A model generated the notes under the pieces. It did no database searches and had not been told where the DNA came from. It saw nothing but the letters and a program-made list of their open reading frames with translations. A stretch of DNA of 45,905 nucleotides from Desulfobacterales bacterium (lineage in GTDB: Bacteria; Desulfobacterota; Desulfobacteria; Desulfobacterales; JAFDMD01), in assembly GCA_029939135.1 (NCBI GenBank), contig JAOZTP010000001.1:1-45905 (forward strand), in the 5' to 3' direction. Below, piece after piece: positions 4,951 to 17,405 of this stretch (within the stretch, counting starts at the first letter, position 1; each line of letters opens with the position of its first letter). Both the position numbers and the translations under genes were made by a program.

Positions 4951-5428
4951 GCCTAAACTTTTTGTGAAGATGCCGCTTAACCGTTTCCGGCACAAGCCCG
5001 TCTATATCGCCGCCGAATTTTGCGGCGTCTTTAATAATAGAGGAGCTTATAAATATCCATCTTAAGCCTGTCATTAAAAATACCGTCTGAATTTTTTTTT
5101 CTAACTTTCTGTTCATAAGGGCAAGCTGAAATTCATATTCAAAGTCCGAAACCGCTCTCATACCCCGCAATATTGCTTTTGCATTTTTCATCTTGGCATA
5201 ATCAACCAAAAGACCGTTAAAACTATCAACCGCAACATTATTAAAGCCTGCAAGACTTTCTTGTAACATCTCTTTTCTTTCTTCTACCGAAAACATAGAT
5301 TCTTTTGCCGGATTATAAAGTATTGCCACAATAATTTTGTCAAACAGATCAAGCCCTCTTTCTATTATATCGATATGTCCGTTAGTTACCGGATCAAAAG
5401 ATCCCGGATATACGGCGATTCTTTCCAT
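4937..5428 (-). CDS. coaD: Phosphopantetheine adenylyltransferase
   Basis: AVYPGSFDPVTNGHIDII (nucleotidyltransferase H-x-G-H), 163 aa, colinear with CoaD. Confidence 0.9.
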   Translation of the reverse strand: MERIAVYPGSFDPVTNGHIDIIERGLDLFDKIIVAILYNPAKESMFSVEERKEMLQESLAGFNNVAVDSFNGLLVDYAKMKNAKAILRGMRAVSDFEYEFQLALMNRKLEKKIQTVFLMTGLRWIFISSSIIKDAAKFGGDIDGLVPETVKRHLHKKFRQEAK

Positions 5429-5612: not shown

Positions 5613-5790
5613 TGTTTTAATGCTATTCACAATAAAGTTGCGGATAAATCAAGAGAAAAAAAAGGGGTATTGTTTTTACTTTTACGGGAATTAATAATAA
5701 TTATAGCCCGTTATCGCAAAGGTTGACTTTTAATTTATATATAGTTATGTATAATTATTCATATTAATAATTAAATCGGAGGTTTAAATA

Positions 5791-6723
5791 ATGCCGCTTT
5801 TTGAAATTTCAAAAAACAATTTGTCATCCATAGGACAAAAAAATTTTGAATTAGAAAAAAAATTACAGATATTGATAGAAAAAAATTTAAAAACAGTTTT
5901 TAACTGTCGTTTTGTCGCTACGGAATTTTCTACGGGTAATCAACACAATGGAAGAATAGATACTTTGGCTCTTTCCGAAGATAATAATCCTGTTATTATA
6001 GAATATAAAAAGGTCGTATCTTCGGAATTAATAAATCAAAGTTTATTCTATCTGTATTGGCTGCAAGATCATAAAGGCGATTTTGAGATAGCCGTTTAAA
6101 AAAAACTTGGAAATTCGATAAAAATAGATTGGTCAGATATTAGAGTGATTTGTATTGCCCCCAATTATAAAAAATATGATCTGCATGCCGTTCAAGTTAT
6201 GGGGGCAAATATCGAACTTTGGAAATATCGACTTTTTACCAATAATATTTTATATTTTGAAGAAGTTTTGCATACTTCAAAAATTATCTCAGGTTCCGAG
6301 ACGTCAAATAAAAATCCGGTTATGGTTGAAGCAGGAAAAAAAGCGGCGATTACAAAAGCTACGGCTATATATACATTCGATGAACATATAGAAGGCAAAC
6401 CTGACCATATTAAAGAGATTGTTTATAAAATCAGAGAATTTATAATGGAATTAGATACTTCAATTGAAGAAATTCCTAAAAAATATTATGTCGCATATAA
6501 AGTTTCACAAAATATTGTTTGTATGATTATAAAAGGGCAGCTAATTAATTTATTTTTAAAATTAGATGAGTCAGAAGTTTTAAACCCGCCTGAATTTTAT
6601 AAAGATATGAGTCAAACAGGACATCAGGGCACAGGCGACGCAAGATTTGCTATCTCGTCGGAATCAGAATTGGACCAGACAAAACCTTTTATTGAGCTGG
6701 CATATAATAAAATCGGAGGGTAG
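5791..6723 (+). pseudogene. NucS-like PD-(D/E)xK nuclease / DUF5655-type protein interrupted by an in-frame TAA (6097..6099)
   Basis: ORFs 5791..6099 and 6145..6723 share one frame. Translation reads straight through: ...HKGDFEIAV*KKLGNSIKIDWSDIRVICIAPNYKKYD. The N-terminal half has GRIDTLAL...VIIEYKK (D...ExK). Confidence 0.6.
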
Positions 6724-6790
6724 TTAGGCTTAACTACAATCAAATAAAATTCGATAATTTTATAATATTTTTTATTAAAAAAGAATTGCT

Positions 6791-7063
6791 ATGTTAATAA
6801 TAAAAAAAGCGGAGTATATCGGCGATTATACAATCCGGCTTATTTTTAACAACGGAAAAAAGGGGAAAGTCGATCTTGAAAAAATAATATTTGAAGATAA
6901 AAGACCGATTTTTTCAAAATTAAAAAATAAAAACGATTTTAAAAATTTCCAAATTAAGTATAATACCGTAACTTGGAACGCAGGGCTTGATTTGGCTCCG
7001 GAGTATCTTTTTTACCTTGCATTTAAAGAGGATATGGATTTACAAAATCAATTTAAACAATGA
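6791..7063 (+). CDS. DUF2442-like small protein
   Basis: 90 aa. The pattern ...IKKAEYIGDYTIRLIFNNGKKGKVDL...WNAGLDLAPEYLF resembles the DUF2442 family. A paralog lies at 33285..33524. Confidence 0.6.
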   Translation: MLIIKKAEYIGDYTIRLIFNNGKKGKVDLEKIIFEDKRPIFSKLKNKNDFKNFQIKYNTVTWNAGLDLAPEYLFYLAFKEDMDLQNQFKQ

Positions 7064-7388
7064 GGTTATATCAAAATATAAAATACCTCATTATAACGGC
7101 TTATTATTTCCCGAACCTCCAATATTCCCTCCCGAAAATTCCTATTTATTAAAAACTGATTTGACATAAAAAAAAGACTGGCTTAAAACTCATAGGCTTA
7201 TAAACTTGTAGATAGAAAAATAGTTTCTGTTTGCTTTTAAGGCTGAAAAAAGGTTTTAATTTTTAAAATCGGTTGAAAATTCTAAAGATTAAAGTTTTTT
7301 TAAGCGTTAATTAGAAACAAGCTTCTATATTTTTCTATAAAAAACAGATTTACAATCTAATAATGCTGATATTTTCAAGGAGGAAACA

Positions 7389-8393
7389 ATGAGCATAAAA
7401 ATAGGAATTAACGGATTTGGCAGAATCGGGCGTAACATGTTAAGAGCCGCTTTGGATAACAAAGATGCCGAAATAGTCGCTATAAACGACCTTATGGAGC
7501 CGGAAACAATAGCTCAACTGCTTAAATACGATTCGGTTCATGGCAGACTTGACGCCGAAGTAAAGGCGTTAAGCGGCGCAATAGAGGTAAACGGCAAAAA
7601 AATAGCCGTAACTTCAATTAAAGACCCAGCAGCGCTTAAATGGAAAGAATTCGGCGTAGATATAGCCGCAGAAAGCACGGGGCTTTTCAGAGATAGAGAA
7701 AGCGCAAAAAAACATCTTGCGGCGGGAGCAAAAAAAGTAATAATTTCGGCTCCGGGAAAAGATCCTGATATAACCATAGTGTTAGGCGTAAATGCCGACG
7801 AATACGACAGCGCAAAACATCATATAATATCAAACGCTTCCTGCACTACAAACTGTCTTGCTCCGGTAGCAAAAGTGTTAAATGATAAATTTAAAATCAA
7901 AACAGGGCTTATGACTACGGTCCATGCTTATACCGGAGATCAAAAACTTCTTGATGCTCCTCATAAAGATTTAAGACGCGCAAGAGGCGCCGCTCTTTCT
8001 ATGATACCGACAACTACCGGCGCGGCAAAAGCGGTCGCCCTTGTTTTACCGGAACTTTCCGGCAAACTTTCCGGACTTGCCGTAAGAGTGCCTACATCCA
8101 ACGTATCTTTGGTTGATCTTGTAGTCTCCGTAGAAAAGCAAAATATTACCGTAGAAGAGGTAAACGTCGCTTTAAAAGAGGCTTCGGAAAGTTATTTGGC
8201 AAATATACTCGGATACAGCGAGCTTCCTTTGGTTTCAATTGATTTTAACGGAGTGAAATTATCCTCCATAGTAGATGCGCCATGCACTTATGTGGGAGGC
8301 AATTTGATAAAGGTTCTTTCATGGTATGACAATGAAACCGGATATGCTAACAGAATGATCGATCTTGCCGTAATGGTAGGAAAAAAATTATAA
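7389..8393 (+). CDS. gap: Type I glyceraldehyde-3-phosphate dehydrogenase
   Basis: IGINGFGRIGRN Rossmann motif, active-site SNASCTTNCLAP, WYDNE near the C-terminus, AGGAGG RBS upstream. Confidence 0.95.
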   Translation: MSIKIGINGFGRIGRNMLRAALDNKDAEIVAINDLMEPETIAQLLKYDSVHGRLDAEVKALSGAIEVNGKKIAVTSIKDPAALKWKEFGVDIAAESTGLFRDRESAKKHLAAGAKKVIISAPGKDPDITIVLGVNADEYDSAKHHIISNASCTTNCLAPVAKVLNDKFKIKTGLMTTVHAYTGDQKLLDAPHKDLRRARGAALSMIPTTTGAAKAVALVLPELSGKLSGLAVRVPTSNVSLVDLVVSVEKQNITVEEVNVALKEASESYLANILGYSELPLVSIDFNGVKLSSIVDAPCTYVGGNLIKVLSWYDNETGYANRMIDLAVMVGKKL

Positions 8394-8397
8394 TAAT

Positions 8398-10575
8398 ATG
8401 AATTCTCCGATTAAAATAAAAGCCCAAATAGAAAGAATAACCTATAATAACGAAGAAAACGGTTATACCGTCGCAAGGGTAAAAATATTCGGAGAAAGAA
8501 GATTAATTACGGTAGTGGGCAGTATTGTATCTCCTACCCCGGGCGAAGTAATAGAAATGGAAGGCAATTGGGATAATCATCCTCAGTACGGAGAGCAGTT
8601 TCGTATTAAAGCCTGCAAAACATCTGTTCCCGCTACCGTATATGGCATAAAAAAATATCTCGGATCAGGACTTATCAAAGGCATAGGTCCTGTAATGGCT
8701 GAAAGAATAGTAAAAAAATTTAAGGAAAACACTCTTGAGATTATAGAAAAAAATATAGAAAACTTAACCCAAATAGAAGGAATAGCCGCCAAAAGAATCA
8801 AAATGATTCAAAAGGCTTGGGATGAGCAGAAAGATATTCGGGATTTAATGATTTTTCTTCAAAGCCATGGGGTAAGTTCCGGATATGCGGTAAAGATTTT
8901 CAAACGCTACGGAAATGCGGCTATAAATATAGTAAAGGAAAATCCTTACAGACTTGCCTCGGATATTTTCGGAATAGGCTTTGTAATAGCGGACAGCATA
9001 GCCGAAAAACTCGGAATTGCCAAAGATTCCGAAATAAGAGCGACAGCCGGAATATTATATGTTTTAGGCAAGACCGCAGAGGAGGGAAACGTATATTATC
9101 CTTATTCGCTTTTGCTTGAAAAATGCAAATCTATTTTAGATATATCAACCGATAATATAATATTCGCTCTTGGAAACCTAACATTAAGCAAACAGGTTAT
9201 AGTAGAAGATATTAACGAAGATAAAGAGTGGACCGAAAATAACAAAGCCGTATATCTTGCCAAATATCATGTTTGCGAAACGGCTTCGGCTTTTCGCATA
9301 AAAAATCTTATCCATTCTCAAAAATCATTACCGGAAATAGACGCCGATAAAGCTATCGAGCGGATTCAGAGCAGGCTAAACATTAAGCTTGCGGAAAAAC
9401 AGAAAGAGGCGGTTAAATCTGCTTTTCAAAATAAGGTTCTCGTAATAACAGGCGGACCCGGAACAGGCAAAACTACAATAATAAACTCCATAATAAAGAT
9501 ATTTTTACAAGAGAGCGTCAAAATACTTCTTGCCGCGCCTACAGGGCGGGCGGCAAAAAGAATGAGCGAAACTACCGGTTACCCCGCCTCCACAATACAT
9601 AGGCTTTTGGATTTTAATATGGCTGATAAAAAATTCAGGCATAATTTGCAAAATCCTTTAAAGTGCGACCTGTTAATAATAGACGAAGCCTCAATGATAG
9701 ACGTTCTGTTAATGCATCATCTTTTAAAAGCGGCGCCGCAAAATGCGGTTTTTATATTGGTAGGCGATATAAATCAGCTTCCTTCCGTAGGAGCGGGCAA
9801 TGTTTTAAAAGATATTATAGATTCCGGCGCGGTAAGCGTAGTTGAATTAAAAGAGATATTCAGGCAGGCGCAACAAAGCTCTATTATAGTGAACGCTCAT
9901 AGAATCAATCAGGGACTTTCCCCTTTTTATGCAAACGATTCTCCTGATACGGACTTTTATTTTATAGAGAAAGAGGATCCGGAAGAGGTTTTAAAAATAA
10001 TAGTTGATCTTGCATCAAACAGAATAACAAAACGTTTCGGTTTTGATCCTATAGAGGATATACAGGTATTAACCCCGATGCATAAAGGGGTAGTCGGAGC
10101 CGAAAATCTTAATAAAGAGTTAAGAAGGGTATTAAACCCGAACAAGTCCGAAATATCCGTAGGGTTTAAAACCTTTGCGGAACAGGATAAGGTTATGCAG
10201 ATAACCAACAATTACGATAAAAAGGTATATAACGGAGACATAGGCAGGATCATAAGAATAAATAAAGAGGATCAGAAAGCGTTAATACGTTTTGACGCAA
10301 AAGATATAGAATTTTCATTCTCCGATTTAGACGAAATAACTCATGCTTACGCCGTATCGGTTCATAAATCTCAGGGATCCGAATATCCGGCGGTTATAAT
10401 TCCGATTTTAACCCAGCATTATATATTGTTGCAAAGAAACCTTCTTTATACCGCCATAACAAGAGGCAAAAAATTAGTAACCATAGTAGGCTCAAAAAAG
10501 GCTATGGCTATAGGTATCAATAACGACAAGGTTAAAAAAAGATATACTCTTTTTAAAAAAAGACTTCAAAATTAA
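8398..10575 (+). CDS. recD2: RecD2-type SF1 ATP-dependent DNA helicase
   Basis: 725 aa with an N-terminal HhH region. Walker A is GGPGTGKTT, Walker B is LLIIDEASMID. VGDINQLPSVGAG and a C-terminal YAVSVHKSQGSEY...TAITRGKK are typical of RecD-like helicases. Confidence 0.85.
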   Translation: MNSPIKIKAQIERITYNNEENGYTVARVKIFGERRLITVVGSIVSPTPGEVIEMEGNWDNHPQYGEQFRIKACKTSVPATVYGIKKYLGSGLIKGIGPVMAERIVKKFKENTLEIIEKNIENLTQIEGIAAKRIKMIQKAWDEQKDIRDLMIFLQSHGVSSGYAVKIFKRYGNAAINIVKENPYRLASDIFGIGFVIADSIAEKLGIAKDSEIRATAGILYVLGKTAEEGNVYYPYSLLLEKCKSILDISTDNIIFALGNLTLSKQVIVEDINEDKEWTENNKAVYLAKYHVCETASAFRIKNLIHSQKSLPEIDADKAIERIQSRLNIKLAEKQKEAVKSAFQNKVLVITGGPGTGKTTIINSIIKIFLQESVKILLAAPTGRAAKRMSETTGYPASTIHRLLDFNMADKKFRHNLQNPLKCDLLIIDEASMIDVLLMHHLLKAAPQNAVFILVGDINQLPSVGAGNVLKDIIDSGAVSVVELKEIFRQAQQSSIIVNAHRINQGLSPFYANDSPDTDFYFIEKEDPEEVLKIIVDLASNRITKRFGFDPIEDIQVLTPMHKGVVGAENLNKELRRVLNPNKSEISVGFKTFAEQDKVMQITNNYDKKVYNGDIGRIIRINKEDQKALIRFDAKDIEFSFSDLDEITHAYAVSVHKSQGSEYPAVIIPILTQHYILLQRNLLYTAITRGKKLVTIVGSKKAMAIGINNDKVKKRYTLFKKRLQN

Positions 10576-10685
10576 TTCTGCTAAAAAGGATTAATATATT
10601 CGTTTAGTTATTAAGAACTATAGGTCAGCAACTAAGACCGAAAAACTATTAAAAAATAGTATAAATTAATATAGGAAAATAAAAG

Positions 10686-12545
10686 ATGTCATATTTTCAA
10701 AATACAGTAGTTTATATTGAAGGTAATGAAAAGTTAAGAACCCCGCAGATTGAAGCTTATATTAACATTAAAGAATTCTTTAGAAAAAAACCTAATGGAG
10801 AGGCTCTTGTTGTTTTACCTACAGGTACAGGAAAAAGCGGTCTTATTTCTATAGCGCCTTTTGGAGTGGCAAATGGAAGAGTATTAGTTATAACTCCGGG
10901 CATAGTAACTAAAAAAAGCGTCATAAAAGCACTACATCCTTTGGAAGATAATTTTTGGGTTAATCGTGATGTATTATTTAATCCTAAAGATATTCCTGTC
11001 GTAGAAGAATATGAACCTGATATTCTTGATTCTCATCTTGAAAAATGCAACTTTGTAATAACTAATGTTCACAAACTTCAAGAAGGTAAAAAATCATCTT
11101 TATTAGAGAGAGTAAAATCAGATTTTTTTGATATGATTATAGTAGATGAAGCCCATCATGCGCCTGCTGAAACGTGGCAACGTGTTTTTGAATATTTTAG
11201 TAATGCTAAAATATTACATATAACAGGCACTCCTTATAGAGGAGATTCGAAAGAAATTCCGGGAGAGCGAATTCATAATACTCCGTTATCGCAGGTTATG
11301 GCTGATAAATATGTAAAATGGTTGCGCAAAAAAAATGTTAATAGTGATGACTTGTTTTTCACATTGCCAGAAAATCCAGATAAAAAATTTTCTATAGATG
11401 AAGTGATTGGATTCAAAGATAAAGAATGGATCGAAAAGTCAATTGCTTTATCTGAAGAATGTTCTTTAGATGTTATAAGGCAAAGCATAACAGAGTTAAA
11501 ACAACTCAAAGAAACATCTCCTAATGTTCCGCATAAAATTTTAGCCGTAGCTTGCAGCATTAAACATGCCGAAGATGTATGTAAATGGTATGAAAAACAA
11601 AACATGAAGACAGTTTTAGTTCATAGTGGTATGAGAAACGAGTTAATAGAAAAAAATTTAAGGCAAATAGATAATAACGAATGCCAAGTGGTTGTTTCTG
11701 TAAATATGCTTATGGAAGGATATGATCATAAATATTTAACCGTACTCTCAATTTTCAGACCTTATAGAAGCCTAAACGCTTTTGCTCAGGTAGTAGGACG
11801 AATATTACGAGCTATTCCTGACGAAGAGATAACTAATTTTGCTATTGATAACAACGCTGTCGTAATATTCCATAAAGAAATCGGATTAGATGCTATGTGG
11901 ATGGAATTTCAAAAAGAAGTAGAGCGAGCTAACAAACTTATAAATATAAGAGATTATACTTTTTTAGATCGAGAATATGAAAATAGAAAAACAGAATATG
12001 GAACTATTGATAAGGTTGATGACTATTTTGTTGAGAATGAGGATTCATATCTTTTAGCTATGGATTTTAACAAATTATTTCAAGAAGCACGAACTAACAT
12101 TGATGACAAAACAGATATTGAATTTAATAAGGTTAAAAACCAATTAGGATTAAGTGAAGAGGGATTAGAGGATGTAAAGAAAGTAATTCGCAAAGATTTA
12201 ACATCAAAAAATACATCAGAATTAAATAAAATGCTTATTGAAAAACGCCCTGCAATGGCGAGGGCACAATATAGAAAAATATTAAAAGAAAAGTCGGATG
12301 AGGTGGCTTTAGAGCTTCTTGAAGAAAAGGGAATTGACCCTATAGCAACTAATTTATTTGATAAGTTTAATAAATTAATTTATAAACTCCAAAATAATAC
12401 GACTAACGTTGGTATAATAGTTAGGTATATAAATGATAAACTTCGTAACAAATTTGGTCCCGTTGATAAAAGAGAATTAGAAACTTTATCTTTGTCATTC
12501 GAGTATATCAAAAATATTATAGAAGAATTAAGGAGGATGATATGA
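10686..12545 (+). CDS. SF2 (ResIII/DEAH-type) helicase with an about 200-aa uncharacterised C-terminal extension
   Basis: Motif I VVLPTGTGKSG, motif II IIVDEAHHAP, motif III ITGTPYR, motif VI FAQVVGRILR. I recognised no nuclease or methylase motif. Confidence 0.8.
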   Translation: MSYFQNTVVYIEGNEKLRTPQIEAYINIKEFFRKKPNGEALVVLPTGTGKSGLISIAPFGVANGRVLVITPGIVTKKSVIKALHPLEDNFWVNRDVLFNPKDIPVVEEYEPDILDSHLEKCNFVITNVHKLQEGKKSSLLERVKSDFFDMIIVDEAHHAPAETWQRVFEYFSNAKILHITGTPYRGDSKEIPGERIHNTPLSQVMADKYVKWLRKKNVNSDDLFFTLPENPDKKFSIDEVIGFKDKEWIEKSIALSEECSLDVIRQSITELKQLKETSPNVPHKILAVACSIKHAEDVCKWYEKQNMKTVLVHSGMRNELIEKNLRQIDNNECQVVVSVNMLMEGYDHKYLTVLSIFRPYRSLNAFAQVVGRILRAIPDEEITNFAIDNNAVVIFHKEIGLDAMWMEFQKEVERANKLINIRDYTFLDREYENRKTEYGTIDKVDDYFVENEDSYLLAMDFNKLFQEARTNIDDKTDIEFNKVKNQLGLSEEGLEDVKKVIRKDLTSKNTSELNKMLIEKRPAMARAQYRKILKEKSDEVALELLEEKGIDPIATNLFDKFNKLIYKLQNNTTNVGIIVRYINDKLRNKFGPVDKRELETLSLSFEYIKNIIEELRRMI

Positions 12546-12964
12546 AAGACCATGATATTTTAAAAGAAAAAATGGATAAATTAATAAATATAATGCTTGT
12601 AGACGGAGTTCAGCCATCTGACCTTGCAGATAATATTTTTCAGAAGCCGTATAAAAAAATAACTATTATAAATAAAAAAGATTTCTTTTATTTAGATTTA
12701 GTATTTGAGGAAGATATAGATGATAAAATAGTTAAAACTACGCTTCGTTATACTTATAATAATGATAAAAAATTAATCAGAATAGAACTAATTAATGGTA
12801 AAACCAAAAAGGTTGAGTGGGATAGGGACAGCACAGTTACTCAATTAATTAGAGAAATCATAAATATATTAAACAATGATAAAAACAATCGACGCGTTCT
12901 TGATTTTATTAATTCTTTACCTGAATATTGGCAACAGAAATTTTCCTGTCAAAAAGTAGCTTAA
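12542..12964 (+). CDS. Hypothetical 140-aa protein, translationally coupled to the helicase
   Basis: The start overlaps the helicase stop (ATGA at 12542..12545). No recognisable motif. The call rests on the coupling and on an open frame in AT-rich DNA. Confidence 0.5.
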   Translation: MKDHDILKEKMDKLINIMLVDGVQPSDLADNIFQKPYKKITIINKKDFFYLDLVFEEDIDDKIVKTTLRYTYNNDKKLIRIELINGKTKKVEWDRDSTVTQLIREIINILNNDKNNRRVLDFINSLPEYWQQKFSCQKVA

Positions 12965-13077
12965 TTAAAATTCAATACGGATTATATTGATAGATTATCA
13001 TTAATAATTGTGGGATTAATTAAGTAACAAGACAACAAAGTTTGGTCTTTTTTATTGTTTTTGTAACCCCACGTTAT

Positions 13078-13105
13078 GTAGAGACGTTGCTTGCAACGTC
13101 TCTAC
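13078..13105. terminator. Perfect 12-bp hairpin (GTAGAGACGTTG-CTTG-CAACGTCTCTAC), member of a two-copy hairpin family
   Basis: Lies 7 nt beyond the kinase stop and downstream of the helicase module. The same core recurs at 41075..41116. Confidence 0.5.
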
Positions 13106-13111
13106 TGCTGT

Positions 13112-14518
13112 TTAAAGATTTGCGGGCAGATAAATCGTAAATACCGTTCCCTCTCCTTTTTTGCTTTTAACCTCTATTTTTCCGTTATGCGTCTCTATTA
13201 TATTGTGAACGTTTGCAAGCCCGATGCCTTTTCCCCAAGCTTTTGTGGTAAAATACGGATCAAAAATATGAGGCATATTTTTTTTATCCATACCTTCGCC
13301 GGTATCGGATACTATTATTTCTATTCCGTCTCTTTTTTTATGATTTCTGCATGCTATTTTTATCAAATCATCCTTTTTACATACGTCAATGGCGTTTAAA
13401 TAAAGATTTAATAAAACCTGCGTTATTTTATCCGAATCTGCATTTACGGTTTTAAGATTTTTTTCAAATTCGGTTTGAACGATTATAAATTTTTTTGCGG
13501 CTTTATTTTCTATAAGTTTTAAGGAGTTTAATACAATAGTTTTAATATCGACCAAATTTTTATAAAGCTTTACGGGAACCGAAAACTCAAGAAGCTCTCC
13601 TACTACCCTATTTACCCTTTCCACCTCGTTTGACATAATTTCGGCAATATTGCGTTCCTTTTCCGAATTAAATTTTTTTTCTTTAAAATATGTGGCAAAA
13701 CCTTTAATTGAGCTTAAAGGATTTCTTATTTCATGGGCTACTCCGGCTGCAAGCTTTCCTATGGAAGCAAGACGCCGGGCTTCCGCTATCTCTTTTTTCA
13801 GCATAGCGTTAGCGTTGCGATAACCGAGAGTAATAAAAAGAGATAGTATGCCGGATAGACTGATAAGAAAAAATATAACGCCTCTGCCGATTGCATAACG
13901 AATTTTATTCGCCCTGCTTTTTTCAAATGCGGATATGTCAAAACCTGCAAATATAATTTGTTTACGTAAATAGTTTTCTTTTCCCTTAAAACCCAAAGTA
14001 GGCGGTACACAAGAACTATTCCGCTTTATATTATGTCGGTTTTGATAAAAGCATGAAGGAGACAATACTCTGAATACTTCAAATATTTTATTGTTTTTTT
14101 GCGTTATAATTTTACGCCATTTTAAATCTCTAATATTAATTTTATCCGAAAAAATATCCTTTTTATCTATATGTTTTTTTCCTATAAAAGCGGGGTTGCT
14201 ATGAGCTATAATTTTTCCGCTTATATCAGTTACGGCAAGATATGCTATATCGGACTGTTTTACTATTTCCGACATAAGCGTCTGCCTTTCTTGAATCCCC
14301 CAATTCATGCCGCCTATTCCCGCCATAGTTCCGGCTTCAAAGGTTTTTATTATTGCGGCGCCTTTTCCTAACATAAGATAGTTAAAATTTACTCTGTATT
14401 CCTTTATATTGTTCATAGTAATAAAGGAGAAAATTGGCAAAAGTATAACCGCCGATCCTATAAAAATCCACGGAGGAATTAAACTGCTTATATTTTTATT
14501 TTTAATTTTTTTTAACAT
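13112..14518 (-). CDS. Membrane sensor histidine kinase (ZraS/AtoS-like)
   Basis: Two hydrophobic segments flank a periplasmic-size domain. H-box AAGVAHEIRNPLSSIKGF. HATPase_c motifs LNLYLNAID, DTGEGM, GKGIGL. Confidence 0.85.
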   Translation of the reverse strand: MLKKIKNKNISSLIPPWIFIGSAVILLPIFSFITMNNIKEYRVNFNYLMLGKGAAIIKTFEAGTMAGIGGMNWGIQERQTLMSEIVKQSDIAYLAVTDISGKIIAHSNPAFIGKKHIDKKDIFSDKINIRDLKWRKIITQKNNKIFEVFRVLSPSCFYQNRHNIKRNSSCVPPTLGFKGKENYLRKQIIFAGFDISAFEKSRANKIRYAIGRGVIFFLISLSGILSLFITLGYRNANAMLKKEIAEARRLASIGKLAAGVAHEIRNPLSSIKGFATYFKEKKFNSEKERNIAEIMSNEVERVNRVVGELLEFSVPVKLYKNLVDIKTIVLNSLKLIENKAAKKFIIVQTEFEKNLKTVNADSDKITQVLLNLYLNAIDVCKKDDLIKIACRNHKKRDGIEIIVSDTGEGMDKKNMPHIFDPYFTTKAWGKGIGLANVHNIIETHNGKIEVKSKKGEGTVFTIYLPANL

Positions 14519-14806
14519 ACAAATTTTTTATTATTAAATAAAAAAGAAATTTTTCAATTAGCTCGACATTATATATTTTTTATTTCTGCCGAATATTTTT
14601 TAGGCTGCAATAAAAATATAGCCGGAGCAAACAAACTTTAAACATCTATCGCTCGAATATAATTGGAGCAAATTATTATAACAAATTAAGAATATAACGG
14701 GAAACCATTATTTATATAAGGTATTAGCAAATAATATGCTATCCTGTTTTATAATTTTTTTTATTGTTGCGTTTTTCAAAATAACAAATAAGAAAAAGCG
14801 CTTCTT

Positions 14807-15242: not shown

Positions 15243-15437
15243 ATGAAAAGGTTATTAATAGTTTCAATTGTATTGGCGGTAATAGGGCTGAGCGCAAACG
15301 GATTCGCCGGCAACGGACATGGAGCGGGACAAGGCGCAGGAGCAGGAAAAGGACAGGGAGGCACAGGGCAAGGTTTAGGACCCGGGCAAGGTTTGGGGGA
15401 CGGTTCGGGAGATCATACGGGAACTTGCAAAAAATAA
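15243..15437 (+). CDS. Secreted Gly-rich mini-protein (64 aa), signal-peptide paralog of the next gene
   Basis: The RBS and spacer AGGAGGAGACAATG is identical to that of the next gene. The first ~22 codons are near-identical in nucleotide sequence to 15481ff. Predicted mature part: GNGHGAGQGAGAGKGQGGTGQGLGPGQGLGDGSGDHTGTCKK. Confidence 0.5.
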   Translation: MKRLLIVSIVLAVIGLSANGFAGNGHGAGQGAGAGKGQGGTGQGLGPGQGLGDGSGDHTGTCKK

Positions 15438-15480: not shown

Positions 15481-15969
15481 ATGAAAAAGTTATTAATAGT
15501 TTCAATTATATTGGCAATAATAGGATTGGGCGCAAACGGATTCGCTCAAATGGGCATGGGACATGGCAAAGGTATGGGTATGATGCAGAATGGCGCTTAT
15601 AAAACAATACCTTGGTTTACCGCATTGACGTCCGAAAAGCAGACCGCAGTGCAAAAAATTATGGATAATAACACAAAAGATATAACAGCGTTAAAACTTA
15701 AAATGAGCGAAAAAAAAGCAAGACTTGATACGATGTTGTTTGAAGACGGAACCTCGCAAAAGGATATTGATAAGGTTGTGTCCGAAATTAACGCTATTAG
15801 AAGCAAGTTGTATCAAAAAAATATAAATGTGAGCATAGCCTTAAAAAAGGCGGGCGTTCCTCATCCCTTTTATAATCGCTCGATGGGCGGCGGCTGCTGC
15901 GGCAAAAAAGCCGGCATGGGTATGATGAAAAAGATGAAAAATTGCCCTACGATGCCTGCAGGCAAATAG
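15481..15969 (+). CDS. Periplasmic Spy/CpxP/ZraP-family protein (heavy-metal or envelope-stress associated)
   Basis: Signal peptide, then an MGMGHGKGMGMM metal-type N-terminal stretch, a helical core, and a C-terminal MGGGCCGKKAGMGMMKKMKNC. Architecture resembles E. coli ZraP. It is divergent from a ZraS-like kinase. Confidence 0.6.
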   Translation: MKKLLIVSIILAIIGLGANGFAQMGMGHGKGMGMMQNGAYKTIPWFTALTSEKQTAVQKIMDNNTKDITALKLKMSEKKARLDTMLFEDGTSQKDIDKVVSEINAIRSKLYQKNINVSIALKKAGVPHPFYNRSMGGGCCGKKAGMGMMKKMKNCPTMPAGK

Positions 15970-16083: not shown

Positions 16084-16292
16084 AGACCTTCAACTTAAAA
16101 AATATAAAAGCGCCAGCCGAAATTATAAGCCTATTTTTGTCTAACTAATCAAGAAATCCCTTTATTTTTAAGGCATGCGAGAATTTTAATCGCATACTTA
16201 TTAAATATAAGTTGAGGATTAAATTTTGAGTATAATGTAGATAAGATATACAATAAGAGGTTATGCGACGCTTTAAAAAAAAGGAGGCAAAA

Positions 16293-17405
16293 ATGATTAT
16301 AGGAATTTTAAAAGAGATTAAAGAAAAAGAAAATAGGGTTTCTATGACTCCGGCGGGAGCAGGTTTAATGAAACAAAACGGGCATACGATTTTGGCGGAA
16401 AAAAATGCGGGTAAAGGAAGCGGATTTGAGGACGCCGAATATATTAAATGCGGTGCAGAAATAGTAGCTGAGGCAAAAGATGTTTTTGCTCGCGCCGATA
16501 TGATAATGCATGTAAAAGAACCCCTGCCGCAAGAGTATGATTTAATCAAAAAAGACCAAATAGTATTTACTTTTTTACATCTTGCGGCAGAAAAAAAACT
16601 TACCCAAGCTCTTATAAAAAACGGTTCTATAAATATTGCTTACGAAACAATTCAAAAAAAAGACGGCTCCTTGCCTTTATTAAAACCTATGAGCGAAATT
16701 GCCGGCAGAATGTCAATTCATCAGGCGGCAAAATATCTTGAAACCTCTTACGGAGGCTCCGGCGTTTTAATTGGCGGCGTTCCAGGAGTTAAGCCTGCTA
16801 CCGTGTTAATAGTCGGAGGCGGAACCGTAGGTATAAACGCCGCAAAAATGGCTTGCGGACTCGGCGCTTTGGTATATATTTTCGATAAAAATCAGGAACG
16901 CTTAAGATATTTAAACGACGTTATGCCTTCCAACTGCTTTACCCTTATGTTTGATCCGATTAATTTTGAAAAATTTTTTAAAAAAGCAGACGTGATAATA
17001 GGCGGGGTTCTTATACCCGGCGCAAAGGCTCCCAAGCTGATAACCCGCGACATGTTAAAACAAATGAAAAAAGGTTCCATACTAATTGACGTATCGATTG
17101 ATCAGGGCGGTTGCTTTGAAACCTCAAAACCTACTACCCATACAAATCCTATTTATATGGTTGACGGCATCCTTCATTACTGCGTGGCAAATATGCCCGG
17201 AGCCGTGGCTAAAACTTCTACGATGGCTCTTACAAACGCCACTTTGCCGTATGCTTTGGAGATTGCGAATAAAGGCTGGAGAAAAGCTATGATTGAAAAC
17301 GAAGAGATAAAAGCCGGAGCAAATATAATAAAAGGGGAGGTTACTTATAAAGGAGTGTCGGAGGCGTTCGGGATTGGTTATGCCGATATAAACGGTTTTT
17401 TATAG
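16293..17405 (+). CDS. ald: Alanine dehydrogenase
   Basis: MIIGILKEIKEKENRVSMTPAG..., NAD motif VLIVGGGTVGINAA. An AAGGAGG RBS precedes the ATG at 16293. The track ORF starts 30 nt earlier. Confidence 0.9.
   Translation: MIIGILKEIKEKENRVSMTPAGAGLMKQNGHTILAEKNAGKGSGFEDAEYIKCGAEIVAEAKDVFARADMIMHVKEPLPQEYDLIKKDQIVFTFLHLAAEKKLTQALIKNGSINIAYETIQKKDGSLPLLKPMSEIAGRMSIHQAAKYLETSYGGSGVLIGGVPGVKPATVLIVGGGTVGINAAKMACGLGALVYIFDKNQERLRYLNDVMPSNCFTLMFDPINFEKFFKKADVIIGGVLIPGAKAPKLITRDMLKQMKKGSILIDVSIDQGGCFETSKPTTHTNPIYMVDGILHYCVANMPGAVAKTSTMALTNATLPYALEIANKGWRKAMIENEEIKAGANIIKGEVTYKGVSEAFGIGYADINGFL

Follow-up and report, generated by a model that had tools for sequence, protein, structure and literature searches.

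Introduction

Hachiman, a two-gene defense operon, joins a superfamily 2 (SF2) helicase, HamB, to a smaller partner, the DUF1837 nuclease HamA. PsyrTA and RqlHI consist of a RecQ-like helicase toxin and a small cognate partner, are found on mobile elements and possibly follow a logic of neutralization. Two further helicase systems were described from the defense hotspot of P4-like satellites. In the first, Rst_HelicaseDUF2290, an ATP-dependent helicase and an uncharacterized DUF2290 partner act against a narrow range of phages (Rousset et al. 2022, PMC9122126). The second is Crouga (Unknown 3A/3B, plasmid pFD421), one of eight P4 hotspot loci without assigned function that were assayed in a 2026 study (NAR 2026, gkag898, PMC13586616; bioRxiv 10.64898/2026.02.27.708500), and one of its proteins is described as having ResIII, DEAD and Helicase C domains (PMC13586616). 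Here we analyze a 45,905-nucleotide stretch of DNA from a Desulfobacterales bacterium (assembly GCA_029939135.1, contig JAOZTP010000001.1; hereafter the window), in which an SF2 helicase of 619 amino acids (aa) is encoded directly upstream of a 140-aa protein. This gene pair is a phylogenetically remote new member of the Crouga family, which has a published phenotype and no mechanism. We take the pair to be a horizontally acquired two-component anti-phage module of that family, with a probability of about 0.8.

Results

The window pair is a distant orthologue of Crouga

The sequence of Crouga was located by matching two E. coli codon strings to the file of synthesized fragments, where it appears as 'Syst.15_UnknownSys3', an entry with genes for a helicase of 619 aa and, overlapping it, a protein of 140 aa. 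The window helicase is 54% identical to the Crouga helicase from end to end (residues 1–619 against 1–618, blastp), and the partners are 25% identical over 129 aa (E 1.3e-15, blastp). The two pairs also have the same gene order, protein lengths, ATGA overlap between the genes and Pfam domains. Because both proteins are homologous and the layout is the same, the window pair is a distant orthologue of Crouga. An earlier annotation of this DNA, made from the sequence without database searches (the first-pass annotation), had held that the gene order and partner size match no named system, a statement that is overturned by the match to Crouga, published in 2026. The settings of the two pairs differ. 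Crouga has an enterobacterial host and lies in a P4 satellite, whereas the window pair lies in the metagenome-assembled genome (MAG) of a sulfate-reducing deltaproteobacterium, with no satellite or integrase, where it forms a bare cassette of 2.5 kb flanked by recD2 and a histidine kinase gene.

In E. coli, Crouga lowers the plating of phages T4, Bas35 and Bas11 10- to 650-fold and leads to small plaques for many other phages (gkag898). The efficiencies of plating in replicates 1 and 2 were 0.0015 and 0.012 for T4, 0.022 and 0.020 for Bas35, 0.05 and 0.012 for Bas11, 0.10 and 0.086 for Bas01, and 0.023 and 0.10 for Bas63 (gkag898). The first-pass annotation had proposed that the helicase and its small partner form an anti-phage module, and the reduced plating conferred by an orthologous pair supports this. 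The authors of the Crouga study give no mechanism, and their notes read 'RM-like system?', where RM is restriction-modification; their AlphaFold 3 model of the pair has an interface predicted template modeling score (ipTM) of 0.59, and they label the partner 'putative immune protein' and DUF6156 (PF19653) (10.64898/2026.02.27.708500).

Helicase and partner are conserved as a unit

A search of 5.8 billion proteins with the window helicase gave 1303 homologues among the candidates scored. The best 120 of the 1303 cover 97–100% of the query at 53–83% identity and are 601–629 aa long; their sources are Bacillus, Paenibacillus, Clostridium, E. coli, Salmonella, Citrobacter, Vibrio, Myxococcus and Sorangium. 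The C-terminal 240 aa are kept at full length in all of these 120, including those from Bacillota, Enterobacterales, Vibrio, Pseudomonas and Myxococcota, and judged by these alignments the C-terminal extension is a conserved, family-defining domain. The helicases of distant phyla are still 54–61% identical to each other, which points to horizontal spread.

A homologue of the partner is encoded directly downstream of the helicase in 15 of 15 inspected loci at which the helicase is at least 47% identical to that of the window, so the small protein does follow homologous helicases, a point that the first-pass annotation had wished to see checked. Downstream open reading frames (ORFs) were extracted at all of these loci, whose sources are a Pseudomonas chromosome, a Lachnospiraceae MAG, B. 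firmus, Paenibacillus, Vibrio europaeus and E. coli, two deltaproteobacterial contigs and one Firmicutes contig from metagenomes, a megaplasmid of P. aeruginosa and a plasmid of Peribacillus. The partner is mostly 138–145 aa long at these loci (150 aa on the Peribacillus plasmid), and at every one of them its ORF abuts or overlaps the helicase stop codon. Averaged over pairs from 12 loci, identity is 65% in the helicase core, 44% in the C-terminal domain and 31% in the partner, and the divergence of the partner is correlated with that of the helicase C-terminal domain (r = 0.84). We read this gradient as that of a conserved motor attached to a putative specificity or regulatory module whose parts evolve fast and would be co-adapting.

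A second tier of helicases, with 31–42% identity and lengths of 630–670 aa, is encoded ahead of a shorter ORF of 110–123 aa (L003 7871–8224, L004 2657–3028, L006 7943–8275 and L009 8017–8361). In two of these four loci (L003 and L006) the short ORF is weakly related to the partner family, with E between 1e-5 and 1e-6, and this tier is possibly a diverged, Crouga-like subtype. Still more remote relatives of the helicase core are about 680 aa long and 30–35% identical; those encoded at L019 5821–7851, L020 8623–10704 and L022 8249–10015 are 32–34% identical. The L019 protein, the only one scanned, has an N-terminal HTH_17 domain, and those of L020 and L022 neighbor a type IV secretion system (T4SS) coupling protein or a transposase. 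No small partner was found beside the helicases of L019, L020 and L022; without one, they appear to be a separate element-borne subfamily, and we dropped them as a clue to mechanism.

The pair is an insertion in this genome

A sister locus was found through the 90% cluster of RecD2, on a 27.5-kb contig (L174) of another deltaproteobacterial MAG. L174 is syntenic with the window at 88–89% nucleotide identity, with genes for CobA, an M16 peptidase, a cytidylyltransferase, gap, recD2, the histidine kinase, Metal_resist and dsrAB. Positions 5288–8753 of L174 correspond to 7134–10594 of the window, and 8755–10183 to 13112–14540 (blastn). In L174 the kinase gene comes 23 bp after recD2 and the 2517-bp segment that holds the pair in the window is missing, so that the pair is an insertion, an accessory cassette, in this genome. 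The hairpin downstream of the partner gene is also missing from the empty site and thus lies within the cassette. GC content is 0.31 in the helicase gene and 0.26 in the partner gene, against 0.37 in recD2 and 0.42 in gap. L174 comes from the same metagenome sample as L081, a contig that carries the pair. Both junctions of the cassette carry TnCTGC, and the empty site has a single TACTGT. We considered this motif as a target-site duplication or terminal repeat and dropped the idea, since 6 nt is too short; it is only a motif common to both junctions. None of 80 other metagenomic recD2 loci has the pair. A functional link to recD2 was therefore rejected, the adjacency having arisen by insertion.

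Elsewhere the pair is mobile, being carried by satellites, a Tn7-like transposon, plasmids and integrase-bearing islands. The helicase is present in 129 of 5426 complete E. coli genomes. Two of these genomes were examined, those of E. coli O26:H11 11368 and isolate L1_E925; in both, a P4-like satellite at tRNA-Sec carries the pair between its int and psu genes, a position that is the P4 defense hotspot. On pCF39S, a 469-kb megaplasmid of P. aeruginosa (L172, 646–11279), a Tn7-like transposon with genes for TnsA, a Mu-transposase-type TnsB, an ATP-binding TnsC-like protein and TnsD carries the pair as cargo, and the pair adjoins an antitoxin gene of Xre/MbcA/ParS-type toxin–antitoxin systems. 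The pair is also on an 11-kb Peribacillus plasmid, and in B. firmus, V. europaeus and a metagenome contig it neighbors resolvase, integrase or T4SS-pilin genes. Plasmid records matching the helicase number 73; in 50,697 phage genomes, there was no match to it at E <= 1e-20 (tblastn). A vertically inherited housekeeping helicase, which the first-pass annotation had named as an outcome that would count against its proposal, is not what this patchy distribution, the high identity across phyla and the insertion in this genome describe.

A restriction-like helicase core and a predicted all-helical C-terminal domain

Pfam finds ResIII, Helicase_C and DEAD in the helicase and no domain beyond about residue 400. 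The motifs PTGTGKSG, DEAHH, TGTP and QVVGRILR noted in the first-pass annotation are present in the translation. In an alignment of 26 family members they occupy invariant columns, with no variation in Walker A K50, DEAH, TGTP and the arginines of motif VI (motifs I, II, III and VI). Several C-terminal residues, K520, R521, P522 and R526 among them, are invariant in the same alignment. The Q-motif region begins at residue 20; since the protein starts at this region, it has no N-terminal nuclease domain.

The nearest solved sequences are SauUSI (7clg, E 3.7e-13) and HsdR (3h1t, E 6.8e-11), both aligned to the RecA-like core only, and in the same comparison with sequences of the Protein Data Bank (PDB) XPBII matches residues 148–375 and RadD residues 284–379. 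PADLOC and NCBIfam models give weak matches to the core, namely mREase_IV (E 2.6e-18), REase_I, EcoAI R (E 1.8e-14) and RadD (E 2.9e-19), all with scores far under the family cut-offs (EcoAI R 53 bits against 550; RadD 68.8 bits against 720). The likeness of the core to SauUSI and HsdR suggests translocation on double-stranded DNA.

Residues 380–619 are predicted by AlphaFold2 to form helices only, with a mean predicted local distance difference test score (pLDDT) of 78.5 and values mostly above 90 in the last 90 residues. The domain has an acidic half of lower confidence (380–520, isoelectric point (pI) ~4.5) and a basic half (520–619, pI ~9.7) that ends in a high-confidence bundle. No nuclease or methylase family was found in the C-terminal region with Pfam, PADLOC or NCBIfam; Pfam at E <= 10 gave noise only; Foldseek against the PDB gave no significant match (best E 1.8); and profile and sequence searches of this domain and of the partner against PDB sequences gave nothing below E 0.05. 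The first-pass annotation was right that the region is charged and helical and lacks a nuclease or methylase match; its word 'orphan' does not fit, since the domain is conserved at full length in relatives.

The partner gene is coding and under purifying selection

The absence of a recognizable domain in the 140-aa protein, also stated in the first-pass annotation, was borne out by Pfam, NCBIfam, PADLOC and PHROG, none of which gave a match above noise. The AlphaFold2 model (pLDDT 85, predicted template modeling score (pTM) 0.77) starts with two helices, continues with an antiparallel meander of five strands and ends in three helices. Foldseek finds a weak resemblance to NTF2/cystatin-like alpha+beta cones, and none of its matches is significant, with best E values of 0.04 against the PDB and 3e-3 against BFVD at template modeling (TM) scores of ~0.3. 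A PD-(D/E)xK motif or fold match was not found in the partner. A single-sequence search with the window partner finds only five relatives, and a profile search with the partner family finds 94 clusters, all annotated 'hypothetical'. The window protein matches the family profile with E 3.4e-57 and is 28% identical to the partner of E. coli O26 (E 6e-18). In a HMMER scan of 1.84 billion representatives the family comprises 183 clusters at 50% identity. Among the best 150 of these 183 there are no fusions of the partner to another domain, only stand-alone proteins and short fragments, aside from one spurious repetitive match. GVQP, Y37, Y70-x-Y72, W93-D-R95 and P127 are common to the family. The ratio of nonsynonymous to synonymous substitution rates (dN/dS) in the partner gene is 0.22 between the window and L081, 0.34 between the window and L082, and 0.04–0.05 among E. 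coli variants. These values indicate purifying selection and therefore a real coding gene; the first-pass annotation had asked whether the small ORF has a coding signature, and dN/dS is well below 1.

Comparison with other systems

The window pair resembles Hachiman in being a two-gene unit of SF2 helicase and smaller partner. It differs in that the partner is downstream and 140 aa long and the helicase belongs to a ResIII/HsdR-like group, not to the HamB family. Neither protein has a PADLOC match to the HamA or HamB models at E <= 0.1, and DUF1837 is not found with Pfam. Of the 'Hachiman-like logic' invoked in the first-pass annotation, the analogy of a helicase with a partner stands, and a match to HamA or HamB does not exist. 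Rst_HelicaseDUF2290 is like the Crouga family in its P4 hotspot niche and in pairing a helicase with an uncharacterized partner. DUF2290 was found neither in the window partner (E <= 0.1) nor in the E. coli homologues (E <= 1), and the PADLOC model of the Rst system is unmatched.

In sequence, the RecA-like core is closest to the motors of type I HsdR and type IV SauUSI; the window pair, in contrast, has no nuclease domain (PD-(D/E)xK or phospholipase D-like), no DNA-recognition domain and no HsdM or HsdS genes. With PsyrTA and RqlHI the pair has in common a helicase accompanied by a small cognate protein, carriage on mobile elements and a possible logic of neutralization. It differs from them in helicase family and in partner, and the similarity is that of a generic Helicase_C domain.

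Gene layout and other features of the window

The two ORFs, their coordinates and the ATGA overlap given in the first-pass annotation agree with the ORF listing and the sequence (Table 1). The stop codon of the helicase gene and the start codon of the partner gene overlap by 4 nt, and the AGGAGG ends 3 nt before the partner start, so that on this reading of the sequence the two genes are translationally coupled through the Shine-Dalgarno sequence and the stop/start overlap. The gene 5' of the helicase is recD2 (RecD2 model TIGR01448 of NCBIfam, 921 bits against a cut-off of 500). The hairpin separates the partner gene from the convergent kinase gene and probably terminates transcription in both directions. 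No integrase or methyltransferase gene adjoins the pair in the window, and this neighborhood of recD2, hairpin and convergent kinase is as the first-pass annotation had it, now with TIGR01448, inverted-repeat and domain scans behind it. An Rfam search of the cassette gave no match.

Table 1. Coordinates of the Crouga-type cassette, its parts and the adjoining kinase gene in the window
Feature	Position	Strand	Basis
Accessory cassette of 2517 bp (leader, helicase, partner, hairpin) between recD2 stop and kinase stop	10595..13111		no L174 counterpart
Crouga-type SF2 helicase, orthologue of Crouga 'Unknown 3B'	10686..12545	+	619-aa ORF
RecA-like domain 1, ResIII (Walker A GTGKS, DEAH, TGTP)	10731..11240	+	PF04851, residues 16-185, E 7.5e-23
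RecA-like domain 2, Helicase_C (motif VI QVVGRILR)	11517..11813	+	PF00271, residues 278-376, E 2.8e-10
Predicted all-helical, family-specific C-terminal domain, residues 380-619	11823..12542	+	AlphaFold2 and family alignment
AGGAGG Shine-Dalgarno for partner gene, within helicase 3' end	12533..12538	+	sequence reading
Small partner protein, orthologue of Crouga 'Unknown 3A'	12542..12964	+	140-aa ORF
Perfect hairpin, 13-bp arms	13078..13105		terminator scan and inverted-repeat search, 100% complementary
HisKA/HATPase_c histidine kinase gene	13112-14518	convergent with pair	domain annotation

The window has other features outside the cassette. About 4 kb upstream of the pair, at 5791–6723, lies a homologue of PDC-S18, a PADLOC candidate defense gene, with a PD-(D/E)XK-like N-terminus and DUF5655. 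It has a single in-frame stop at 6097–6099 and is possibly a pseudogene. A DUF2442 gene (6791–7063) comes after it, and the segment ~5699–7133 is missing in L174 and forms a second accessory islet. The alanine dehydrogenase gene at 16263–17405 has no syntenic counterpart in L174, where window positions 16170–17329 are missing, a third indel between the genomes. Near the histidine kinase gene, the ORFs 15243–15437 and 15481–15969 encode near-identical signal-peptide-like N-termini (MKRLLIVSIVLAVIGLSANGFAG and MKKLLIVSIILAIIGLGANGFAQ); the product of the former is a Gly-rich peptide of 64 aa, that of the latter a Metal_resist (Spy/CpxP-like) protein. A dsrA/dsrB/dsrD cluster extends from 17810 onward (NIR_SIR and DsrD in the syntenic L174 gene table), and this cluster together with the NCBI labels of close relatives places the contig in the MAG of a sulfate-reducing deltaproteobacterium.

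Discussion

That the window pair is an acquired anti-phage module of the Crouga family is supported by the orthology of both genes to a pair with a measured phenotype, their conservation as a unit and their presence on mobile elements. The window copy is presumably active; its ORFs are intact and under purifying selection. Several points weigh against this interpretation. The protection given by Crouga is real but modest, several phages differ between the two replicates, and the assay used expression from an anhydrotetracycline-induced plasmid, so that an effect of overexpression is possible. The window copy is only 54% (helicase) and 25% (partner) identical to the assayed proteins and comes from a distant phylum. 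No integrase, satellite or transposon genes were found in the window, and a promoter scan of the 110-bp leader found no clear sigma-70 site. The published family label could not be reproduced either, as hmmscan against Pfam-A finds no DUF6156 in Crouga 3A at E <= 10, none in the E. coli partners at E <= 1 and none in the window partner at E <= 0.1. The label is probably from a more sensitive profile method, and DUF6156 is not a reliable defining feature of the Crouga partner. As for mechanism, the failure to find a nuclease is a negative result, and the new-fold partner or the C-terminal domain may have a cryptic active site.

The 619-aa protein would be an ATP-driven SF2 DNA translocase or helicase, with a motor like those of ResIII, HsdR and SauUSI and no nuclease of its own, and its helical C-terminal domain would form a specificity or regulatory module with the co-translated partner. 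Upon infection, the partner-gated motor would act on phage DNA or replication intermediates, and rather than cutting DNA it would stall or remodel phage intermediates or trigger growth arrest. Such a scheme supposes that helicase and partner form a complex, that ATPase activity is required for defense and that the mode of action is nuclease-free. The DNA of T4 and Bas35 is glucosyl-hydroxymethylated and resistant to most nucleases. If this background holds for the phages assayed, activity against T4 and Bas35 is compatible with a nuclease-free mode. We put forward, tentatively and at clearly less than even odds, that Crouga may confer immunity without a nuclease, a restriction-type motor being gated by a partner of new fold and a novel helical domain. 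Stalling or remodeling of replication or packaging intermediates, or toxic translocation released by the partner, would then block T-even phages with hypermodified DNA too.

The alternative that survives best holds that the pair is a toxin–antitoxin-like module for addiction or stabilization, in which the small protein neutralizes a genotoxic helicase, as in PsyrTA and RqlHI, and phage protection is a side effect. We think this unlikely. Such a module would explain why the helicase is never without its partner at the loci of at least 47% identity, why the genes are translationally coupled and why the pair is found on plasmids, a Tn7-like element and satellites; the Crouga authors' label 'putative immune protein' would suit it as well. 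There is also a weak PADLOC match to PsyrT (E 4e-7), but it is confined to residues 269–380, Helicase_C only, and so to the generic helicase fold. Moreover, the partner gene comes after that of the putative toxin, its product shows no likeness to PsyrA, the idea has no direct support, and the two examined E. coli pairs lie in the P4 defense hotspot, whose assayed cargo is overwhelmingly defensive. Toxin–antitoxin logic and defense are in any case compatible with each other.

Much less credible is an accessory enzyme of DNA repair or replication restart, similar to RadD or XPB, that aids the host or the mobile element. RadD is the best NCBIfam match, the nearest solved sequences include those of XPBII and RadD, and recD2 adjoins the helicase gene in the window. 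However, with less than a tenth of the bits required by the RadD model and a patchy, element-borne distribution, identity with the repair helicase RadD was rejected; the adjacency to recD2, absent in 80 recD2 loci, is a product of insertion, and an orthologous pair has an anti-phage phenotype. A decayed or orphan restriction-modification remnant, that is an HsdR/Res-type motor that lost its nuclease and methyltransferase, recalls the mREase_IV and EcoAI R matches and the authors' 'RM-like system?' but can hardly be entertained, since an architecture of 615–622 aa has been kept with its partner across phyla under purifying selection, which is incompatible with decay, a methyltransferase or specificity gene adjoins the pair at none of the inspected loci, and the helicase starts at the Q-motif region with no space for a nuclease domain.

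Read as an acquired Crouga module, the pair adds an anaerobic sulfate reducer to the hosts of a defense system previously described only in P4 satellites of enterobacteria. Members of the family occur in Bacillota, Pseudomonadota, Myxococcota and Desulfobacterota at the least, and the compact cassette of 2.3 kb that they form moves among satellites, transposons, plasmids and bare chromosomal sites. The C-terminal domain and the partner evolve faster than the motor and diverge together, as would be expected of a specificity or sensor module. The pair is thus a tractable two-protein system for studying helicase immunity without an obvious effector, and K50, the DEAH motif and, in the partner, GVQP, Y70, Y72 and W93-x-R95 are conserved targets for mutagenesis. 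If its nuclease-free action proves true, Crouga would represent an immune principle distinct both from restriction and from nuclease release of the Hachiman type.

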